Positions 17,546-18,910 of a stretch of DNA of 59,024 nucleotides are shown here, in pieces. The stretch's first letter is position 1; each line of letters begins with the position of its first letter. The notes beneath the pieces are model-generated. The model was not told where the DNA came from. It did not search any database and saw only the letters and a program-made list of their open reading frames with translations. This DNA is from an uncultured virus (IMG/VR IMGVR_UViG_2822825825_000003) (Duplodnaviria > Heunggongvirae > Uroviricota > Caudoviricetes), in IMG/VR virus record IMGVR_UViG_2822825825_000003. One strand, written 5' to 3'. The position numbers and the translations under genes were made by a program.

Positions 17546-18910
17546 CTAAACATTTGTACATGGACTAAATACAAGAATATCTTCAACTACTAAGTTATGA
17601 GTCTCTGGAACAAAGACATCATAAGTCTGTCTCTTACCATAAGGAATGATTTCTACTACTTCTTCCCATAATACATGAGAATCAATTAAGTAATGTAACA
17701 TTGCAAATTGTAAATTCTCTGCATATTCACGTGCATTACTTAAAGAGATACCTTTTTCTGTACGATAGCGACGATTACCCTTTCCTACCACTTCAGCTTT
17801 CGTCATTCCTTTAACAATTCGTTCCTTTTCAATGTATTTCCATACTTCTTTAGGGAGTGTTGGTTCAGAAGGTTTCATTTTCAGTGCTCTTTGTTGGACT
17901 GCTTCATAATTACGCTCTGATGTAGCTAAATGTTCGAGGAATAATAAAATAGAGGAACAGTGATAAACCATAAGATGGTAATAAACAGAACCGTTCATTT
18001 CTTTTTGAAGTAAATTCGTTTGGATACCAAAACGTAATAGTAAGTGTTTTAGGTCTAATGCAAATTTTCGACACTTAGTAGCATACCCAATTTCACTAAT
18101 ACGTCCGGCGCAAAACCAACCACCTGCCGAATACAGACTTCCTAAGAAGAACGCTAAGTGATCTCTATCCAACTCGTAAATAAATGAAGGGATTTTTTTT
18201 TCTTCTATCTCCCTATAAAACTCAAAACTTCTAAAGTCCATTAGATAGACTGTCGCCTTCTTATGATGCTCATGATACGTTGTAATACCAATTGCCTCAC
18301 AAGATTTTTGCAACGACTCACCAACACCTTCATAACGTACTTGGAAGCTAATGCTATTCTTATTTAAACGTCCCGCAGCGAGCATATATGCAAGAATTCG
18401 AAGTTTATTCTTTTCTACTTGTTTTGTGCCATACACAGTTAAGAACTTAGGTGTAGCAATTCTTTCTCCGATACAGAGTGCATCTACTTCTTTCCATCCA
18501 TCGACTGTTAGTATTGGATGATTTCTTGTAAGGGTAACTCGTGCTCCATGTTTTGTTACAACAGCAAACGTATCTTGAACACCGTTATCTTCAATGGAAA
18601 AAGCTTTACTATTCTTTAATTGATAGAACTCATTCAATGTTAATAATGGTGTAGCGATACCATCTAGTTGGGACTGATAAAGCTCTCCTATCGATTTATA
18701 TTCTCCCGTGTTAGGATTTATAATTCGTTGGTTTTCTTCTATACATTTGCCGACACGCTCACCATAACGTAAACCTTCGCGATAATGTGACTGTCGAATA
18801 ATTTGCTCTTGATACCAACTTGGGCTCTCCCCTAGGTGATGTTCTCTCCTTTGAACATGATCGTGAATAATTTGGAGCATTTCACGTTCAAGATTAATAA
18901 TTTCACTCAT
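17546..18910 (-). CDS. Open 454-aa ORF: 55-aa TerL N-extein + degenerate Hint/LAGLIDADG intein (intein ~18745-17564)
   Basis: Block A C56 IEENQRI; block B TLTRNHPILT; block C LAYMLAAG; block E FLGSLYSAGG; block F WEEVVEI...TYDVFVPETHNL. The terminal HN-S/T/C is replaced by FSPCTNV*. Confidence 0.8.
   Translation of the reverse strand: MSEIINLEREMLQIIHDHVQRREHHLGESPSWYQEQIIRQSHYREGLRYGERVGKCIEENQRIINPNTGEYKSIGELYQSQLDGIATPLLTLNEFYQLKNSKAFSIEDNGVQDTFAVVTKHGARVTLTRNHPILTVDGWKEVDALCIGERIATPKFLTVYGTKQVEKNKLRILAYMLAAGRLNKNSISFQVRYEGVGESLQKSCEAIGITTYHEHHKKATVYLMDFRSFEFYREIEEKKIPSFIYELDRDHLAFFLGSLYSAGGWFCAGRISEIGYATKCRKFALDLKHLLLRFGIQTNLLQKEMNGSVYYHLMVYHCSSILLFLEHLATSERNYEAVQQRALKMKPSEPTLPKEVWKYIEKERIVKGMTKAEVVGKGNRRYRTEKGISLSNAREYAENLQFAMLHYLIDSHVLWEEVVEIIPYGKRQTYDVFVPETHNLVVEDILVFSPCTNV

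Follow-up and report, generated by a model that had tools for sequence, protein, structure and literature searches.

A free-standing, intein-derived protein under selection beside the remains of its terminase gene in a headless jumbo-prophage locus

Once its nuclease is dead, an intein is expected to shrink or disappear, and excised inteins are usually treated as waste. The yeast protein HO retains a non-splicing Hint domain. According to passages of PMC3384342, HO is free-standing and derives from an intein-associated LAGLIDADG protein, and WhiA (DUF199), which comes from a homing endonuclease, combines a LAGLIDADG pair lacking catalytic acids with a helical domain; the protein reported here shares both sets of features. 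The direct parent of our protein is the TerL intein of jumbo phages of the pBtic235/BtI1 type (WH1, KLEB27-3, pAD3, pN497), 81% identical over residues 1–452 and also inserted in Walker A, with dead LAGLIDADG motifs and a helical insert. A terminase intein in BtI1 and a phage-like region of KBAB4, BwK1, described there as a smaller BtI1, are mentioned in PMC2147016. A stand-alone intein goes unmentioned in the accessible portions of that paper, as do pBWB401 and the intein in those of PMC8026635, which covers the pBtic235 group, and the tail genes on pH3-552 in those of PMC8090892. In the literature searched, mostly papers outside subscription, no description was found of this stand-alone intein or of the locus as a tailocin.

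The window analysed here (59,024 nucleotides; IMG/VR record IMGVR_UViG_2822825825_000003) is a co-linear, eroded copy of the pBtic235 genome. The region is 95–97% identical to the megaplasmids pH3-552 and pBWB401, and about 78% identical to the inducible jumbo prophage pBtic235. Of the early and replication genes, many survive only as broken pieces; the genes for sheath, tubes and chaperones are whole, as are those for holin, endolysin and a two-component system (a response regulator and two kinases). Portal, capsid and four other genes are absent from the head module, which has left a scar at 14450..14916(-) with a pseudogene of RS32785. The tail genes retained beside it (10554..14444(-)) encode a sheath-like protein of 499 aa, a virion structural protein of 212 aa and a sheath of 571 aa, and tube gene 1 (9259..10482(-), exons 10303–10482 and 9259–9681) is 98–100% identical to the pBtic235 tube; labels such as ‘sheath-like’ come from PHROG matches, gene order and PMC8026635. 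The tail and baseplate operon continues intact in relatives, and a metagenome locus (L023) has the same headless layout. The headless locus covers positions 1–49900 of the window and about 258–367 kb of pH3-552, and is also found on pBWB401. With head and replication genes lost and contractile-tail and lysis genes kept, it resembles a tailocin or a contractile injection element: as in R-type tailocins and eCIS, the contractile tail is intact (sheath, tubes, chaperones, baseplate), holin and endolysin are in place, and the head and packaging genes (portal, capsid, terminase) are gone. It is a candidate for such an element, known here from gene content, from which we infer its activity.

The genes that flank terL are the same in the phage and in the headless element (14917–16272, 18954–19343, 19349–19747 and 20373–20855). 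None of the four matched Pfam or PHROG, the one of 129 aa is fast-evolving, and a regulator or small terminase may be among them. The first (14917..16272(-), 451 aa), which follows terL in the parent phage, is retained and served as a selection control. Between two others lies a gap (19748–20372, minus strand) where pBtic235 carries the 278-aa gene RS32840; no tblastn match is left there, and the gap is probably a further decayed gene.

Ahead of the tail operon stands an open reading frame (ORF) of 454 aa (17546..18910(-)), in which Pfam and homologs delimit a TerL N-extein, an intein body and a 7-residue tail (Intein_splicing 2e-11, LAGLIDADG_3 8.9e-10). Residues 1–55 (18746..18910(-)), an in-frame translation leader characterized by its dN and codon-position mismatch, are what remains of the N-extein, whose Walker A has eroded from CGRRIGK|T in intact TerL to YGERVGK. 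The intein begins at the K55|C56 boundary (18748/18745) and is open through C56–S449, so that the initial reading of some 394 intein codons without stop or frameshift stands. It consists of a Hint N-lobe (residues 56–165, 18416..18745(-), from sequence and model) with Cys1 (C56) and the block B TxxH as T128-R-N-H131 (TRNH, residues 128–131); a tandem LAGLIDADG pair (residues 166–335, 17906..18415(-), from Pfam, alignment and model) with catalytic positions A179 and G263; a basic four-helix insert (residues 352–412, 17675..17857(-), from model helices and charge); and a Hint C-lobe (residues 413–447, 17570..17674(-), from alignment and model) with the block F Asp431. The dead C-terminal splice junction, short tail and stop (17546..17569(-)) were placed by alignment with intact alleles: the ORF ends in DILV-FSPCTNV and a stop where intact homologs read V-HN|TW, and Phe-Ser-Pro replaces His-Asn|Thr in 17/17 rows of the headless lineage, against HN|T in 65/65 intact-type homologs.

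An AlphaFold model built on a 67-row alignment (mean pLDDT 89) shows Hint, LAGLIDADG pair and four-helix insert complete; the N-extein is modelled at low confidence (pLDDT 39–68). The best fold matches are the DOD inteins PI-PkoII (Z 31.6), TliVMA (29.1) and PI-PfuI (25.0), and WhiA LAGLIDADG structures match residues 163–347 with Z 14.8–16.1 (top match: rmsd 2.9, 177 aligned). The LAGLIDADG_WhiA Pfam profile does not match the ORF, and matches 3/67 homologs weakly (E 0.015). By the measure of a class 1 splicing intein, the Hint fold and the residues of Cys1, block B and block F are in place (C56, T128/H131, D431), but the penultimate His, the terminal Asn, a +1 Cys/Ser/Thr and a functional host protein on both sides are missing. 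Similarly, the two helices and alpha-beta saddle fold of a LAGLIDADG homing endonuclease are there without an acid at the base of either helix (A179, G263; motifs ILAYMLAAG and FLGSLYSAGG). From these residues the ORF is predicted neither to splice nor to home, as the initial annotation had it, which had also rightly reported the eroded Walker A, the vanished His-Asn and the surviving Cys1 and TxxH. Indeed, Cys56, His131 and Asp431 are retained in 15/15 full-length rows (Thr128 is replaced in 2/15), so that N-terminal cleavage is chemically possible.

Both exteins have decayed, in different ways. The N-extein has a dN of 0.258 against pBtic235, compared with 0.03–0.06 between intact phages, and its mismatches at codon positions 1/2/3 (.255/.182/.291) come with 0 indels; one relative carries a 23-aa deletion, again in frame. 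Its amino acids drift and its frame is retained. The C-extein (16334..17545(-)) is a pseudogene, interrupted by stops and frameshifts and shortened by large deletions, and provides an in-gene neutral control. Its description as shredded holds for most of its length, but the stretch at 17140..17480(-), which cannot be aligned to terL, may be something else: tentatively, it is probably the decayed relic of a group I intron inserted at the WLYMD|E site. At this site pN497 carries an RF00028 group I intron; in the window, P/R-like group I motifs match at E 0.16–0.55 only and Rfam gave no match for the stretch. Many homologous TerL N-terminal halves stop at the same site. A hairpin with a T-run (16293–16328, minus strand) separates the 451-aa gene from the former terL stop. 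It is better conserved with pBtic235 than the terL pseudogene and resembles an intrinsic terminator by eye, but is absent from the list of a terminator scan. If it does act as a terminator, transcription of the tail genes would require antitermination or promoters of their own.

The comparison of dN/dS and indel rates between intein and exteins proposed in the initial annotation shows the intein to be constrained. With simple estimators (Nei–Gojobori with Jukes–Cantor correction, and codon-position counts), the intein differs from that of pBtic235 by dN 0.072 and dS 0.65 (dN/dS 0.11), with a per-domain dN of 0.03–0.08, Hint included. Mismatches at codon positions 1/2/3 are.112/.046/.298 with 0 indels in 1176 bp, compared with.27/.205/.29 and 8 indels, 5 of them frameshifting, in 764 bp of the best-aligned C-extein blocks; the difference at position 2 is highly significant (Fisher p 5e-10). 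The figure of 8 refers to BLAST-supported blocks, the 23 indels of a global alignment being inflated by the unalignable 17140–17480. The flat profile of the C-extein places the death of terL early in the divergence. Moreover, third-position divergence is equal in intein and dead C-extein (0.30 versus 0.29), so intein and flanks are of the same age; with its dS also that of the neighbours, a recent re-import from an intact phage was rejected.

At the frameshift rate of the C-extein blocks, 7.7 frameshifts would be expected in 1176 bp and 0 are observed (P about 5e-4); neutrality also predicts 7–10 stops, and in neutral point-mutation simulations (d=0.15–0.24) the frame stayed stop-free in between 0.15% and 0 of 2000 runs. 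Pseudogenes are numerous among the other prophage genes of the window, so unselected genes do decay here. By contrast, the dN/dS of the intein falls inside the range of eight retained neighbours (omega 0.05–0.23, with comparable dS): two chaperones, two tube genes, the sheath, and the 212-, 499- and 451-aa genes. Two further explanations of the open frame were rejected. Retention merely to avoid polarity does not account for the conserved amino acids, and a 1.2-kb untranslated remnant lies downstream regardless; the longest overlapping frame has at most 61 codons. Taken together, these data firmly support the earlier claim that selection retains the ORF, with both exteins dead: it is a selected, free-standing intein-derived protein.

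Constraint persists within the headless lineage. On its stem branch, changes at positions 2 and 3 amount to 0.050/0.38 in the intein, 0.047/0.49 in the 451-aa gene and 0.256/0.69 in the N-extein; the intein ratio, 0.13 against 0.01–0.04 in intact phages, denotes a weaker constraint than before. When four DNA copies are compared (L023, the window and the copies on pH3-552 and pBWB401), variable sites in the intein number 24 synonymous and 22 non-synonymous, on 268/908 sites (p 1.4e-5), with 0 gaps; in the C-extein remnant, 9.6% of the sites vary and 16 indel events are counted. Between pH3-552 and pBWB401 and the window the ORF is 98% identical, and rows with indels in RNA runs, where coverage is partial, fall outside it in 8/8 cases. 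Across 15 full-length proteins, variable columns make up 41% of the N-extein, 17–19% of Hint, 11% and 7% of the LAGLIDADG halves and 8% of the helical insert. Hint thus varies more than the LAGLIDADG and helical parts (27/145 versus 20/231 columns, p 0.006); in intact homologs the ranking is inverted, with Hint the best-kept part. This flip suggests that it is chiefly the nucleic-acid-binding modules that carry the selected activity.

The protein belongs to a 77-member cluster at 90% identity from B. cereus, B. thuringiensis, B. mycoides and B. toyonensis, with some members on contigs of more than 5 Mb. As the cluster holds annotated proteins, unannotated broken alleles would not appear in it. 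Among the 15 members listed, 13 are full length and two are C-terminal fragments of 208 and 211 aa. Both fragments start just 3' of an A9 tract (18193–18201, codons 237–240), the only long A run of the ORF, and could reflect real frameshifts or slippage, or sequencing errors. No relative was found among the GTDB species representatives searched, and no copy of the dead junction among the viral contigs searched.

What the intein was before terL died can be read from its relatives. The same intein, ending in HN|T, sits in Walker A of terL in pBtic235, pAD3, pN497, WH1 and KLEB27-3. In the 65 intact-type homologs (33–75% identical), an acid occupies the first catalytic position in 0/65 and the second in 2/65, whereas more distant DnaB/TerL inteins, which share the helical insert, have both acids in 90/112 aligned domains, the alignment by which A179 and G263 were identified as the catalytic positions. 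As intact, splicing TerL inteins share both the dead LAGLIDADG motifs and the insert, neither is a product of decay. The initial annotation had been correct about the missing acids (LAYMLAAG, LYSAGG); their loss was not part of the decay of terL and, judged from the alignments, the nuclease died long before. Five DnaB-type inteins of the same broad family (P0274, P0310, P0312, P0314 and P0317) also lack both acids.

Between intact phages, this dead-nuclease intein evolves at an omega of about 0.03, and on the same three intact branches second-position change is 0.011–0.057, compared with 0.16–0.22 in the 451-aa gene. Such conservation inside an intact terL indicates that a second function probably predates the death of terL. 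Domestication thus probably began in the phage, the excised intein serving as a second gene product, although a splicing-related folding constraint may account for part of the conservation there. The function is not universal, since 14/86 TerLs of the clade are intein-free (about 4 changes on a quick tree, proportions being biased by how sequences were found) and a complete related phage (G001) combines an intein-free terL with no intein homolog elsewhere. Two distant terL genes (G004:C1 57963–59955 and G005:C1 172528–174247) are interrupted at or near the Walker A site by about 1.3 kb of non-intein sequence, possibly introns at the intein site.

The insert had been described as HTH-like. That it is a basic four-helix unit is borne out by the model, but no Pfam HTH profile matched it in 67 full proteins or 12 isolated inserts, and it is ancestral, older than the decay of terL; nuclease-active DnaB/TerL inteins carry the same insert. 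A phmmer search of residues 352–412 against PDB sequences gave no match, the best ESM Atlas feature score was 0.82 with no family attached, and the insert folded alone by a single-sequence model reached a pLDDT of 67, too low for the model to be reliable. The four helices of the full model look XRE-like by eye only; one member of the protein cluster carries the source name ‘XRE family’.

Expression, whose absence the initial annotation had named as speaking against retention, was found at low depth: reads of a single stranded RNA run (X21, of which 12% was analysed) cover the ORF 0.3–3.4x, all in sense orientation. A loose contig end inside the ORF in another run (X2), considered as an insertion, matches dltA and is best read as a library chimera. 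The tube gene is interrupted by an ORF-less group I intron (9682..10302(-); RF00028 E 2.8e-9, 42 bits, below the gathering score of 50), spliced exactly at 9681^10303 in three RNA runs from three studies. In two of these runs the excised intron is circular (10299->9682), at a depth of up to about 844x where most of the operon lies at 0–3x; the circle is a very stable RNA.

What, then, is being selected? The most likely role, to which we would give about an even chance, is that of a non-cutting DNA-binding factor for the tail operon, much as the initial annotation had supposed. It is favoured by the position ahead of that operon, by the basic modules (pI 8.9 for the second LAGLIDADG half and 9.6 for the insert) and by the sigma-factor-like and HTH genes annotated in pBtic235, which find no match in the window. 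Under this proposal, the excised intein of about 394 aa would probably already have been a working phage protein nested in terL, its conservation being observed and its function presumed. With terL no longer of use, the two exteins would have decayed together with the splice residues at the C-terminal junction; since the frame was kept from the original start to the end of the intein, the protein made today is nearly unchanged. The product would carry the drifting 55-aa leader or be freed from it by Cys1-dependent N-terminal cleavage, contact DNA through the LAGLIDADG saddle and the basic insert on a Hint scaffold, and promote or time tail-operon transcription in the manner of WhiA. In its fullest form, put forward tentatively and with somewhat less confidence, the proposal would make the nuclease-dead TerL intein a tail-gene regulator delivered by splicing, one to one with the terminase, which the B. 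cereus group kept when the terminase decayed.

Several observations count against a regulator: no HTH family matches, other candidate regulators are retained, intein-free phages exist, two cluster members are fragments, and constraint on the stem is weaker. Furthermore, five basic residues of the LAGLIDADG strands have gone in the headless lineage (R197G, R210T, R213H, R215H and R318C), although passages of PMC3384342 report that the first LAGLIDADG half of WhiA has also lost its former positive surface. The candidate promoter motif also counts against a regulator. This motif, AAAAW-N9-TGGTTA, occurs just 5' of the ribosome-binding sites of module genes (window 21479 and 9212, minus strand; pBtic235 73003 and 49285) and its position is conserved across elements, making it a possible late promoter, but it is not enriched (2 in the window versus a shuffled mean of 1.15; 3 versus 2.7 in pBtic235), and sigma-70 promoter matches are at chance level.

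Among the other readings, the one in which the protein recognizes the old homing site in intein-free terL genes and, bound there without cutting, forms a roadblock to related jumbo phages, to the benefit first of the prophage and later of the host, seems to us improbable. Intein-free terL does occur in the same clade, the DNA-binding parts are the most constrained, and such interference would account for conservation in intact phages without the intein being essential. However, the closest pBtic235-like phages yielded no intein-free allele, both catalytic acids are missing, the basic strand residues are altered in the headless lineage, and expression is low in uninduced RNA data. We hold it equally improbable that the protein works through a partner, by chaperoning or joining the tail particle, or that Cys1 thioester chemistry itself is selected. 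Selection on the entire three-domain fold, the invariance of Cys56 and His131, the operon context shared with tail genes and the suggestion in passages of PMC3384342 that WhiA LAGLIDADG may itself make protein contacts would all fit, but Hint is the more variable part in this lineage, with its block B Thr occasionally replaced, and intein-free phages have the same kind of virion genes.

The ORF-less intron of the tube gene suggests a further role, that of a maturase in which the dead LAGLIDADG protein helps this intron to fold. The intron is genuinely spliced, group I intron candidates also exist in pBtic235 and relatives, and nuclease-dead LAGLIDADG maturases are known (passages of PMC3384342). 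Yet introns and this intein do not co-occur in five complete or near-complete phage records (G001 is intein-free and has a group I intron over the cut-off, and G007 bears the intein without an intron match), and pBtic235 conserves the intein without having the tube intron, so that this role appears slightly less probable still. Finally, a protein without function, be it a relic open by chance, a recent re-import or a frame kept to avoid polarity, could appeal to the two truncated members, the low RNA depth and the four full DNA copies compared, but is very improbable given that amino acids as well as frame are conserved, unlike in the N-extein, and given 52 lineage-specific residues.

If the preferred reading, a DNA-binding factor for the tail operon first nested in terL, is true, intein domestication is in hand here with both its before and after states. 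In WhiA and HO only the outcome of domestication is visible; the present case shows the path. Here the host protein is gone, a neutral control lies within the gene itself and the intact ancestor is available as an inducible phage; selection on an intein can thus be measured, and whether inteins do anything for their hosts becomes directly testable. The case also points to the locus itself, in which the tail genes of a jumbo phage persist without the head genes on megaplasmids and on contigs of chromosome size in the B. cereus group; R-type tailocins and eCIS resemble it in gene content, but it derives from a 235-kb jumbo prophage through genome-wide erosion and is known here from its genes.

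As for the protein, it lies outside the splicing inteins, the active homing endonucleases and WhiA. The pBtic235-type intein ends in HN|T inside a whole TerL, whereas in the ORF the exteins are dead and the intein is the sole selected part. The DOD inteins (PI-PkoII, TliVMA, PI-PfuI) and the DnaB/TerL P-loop inteins are alike in fold, and distant relatives share the helical insert, but these splice and mostly cut DNA, and the ORF is predicted to do neither. Like HO it is free-standing, non-splicing and under purifying selection; HO, however, is an active nuclease, whereas the ORF, of bacterial and phage origin and with its old N-extein still attached, lacks both catalytic acids in its predicted sequence. 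WhiA has no Hint domain and a C-terminal HTH, while here Hint is present and the helical unit is an internal intein insert; the origins are independent, and in our case the host pseudogene is still visible. The ORF probably works like a repurposed LAGLIDADG protein of the WhiA type.
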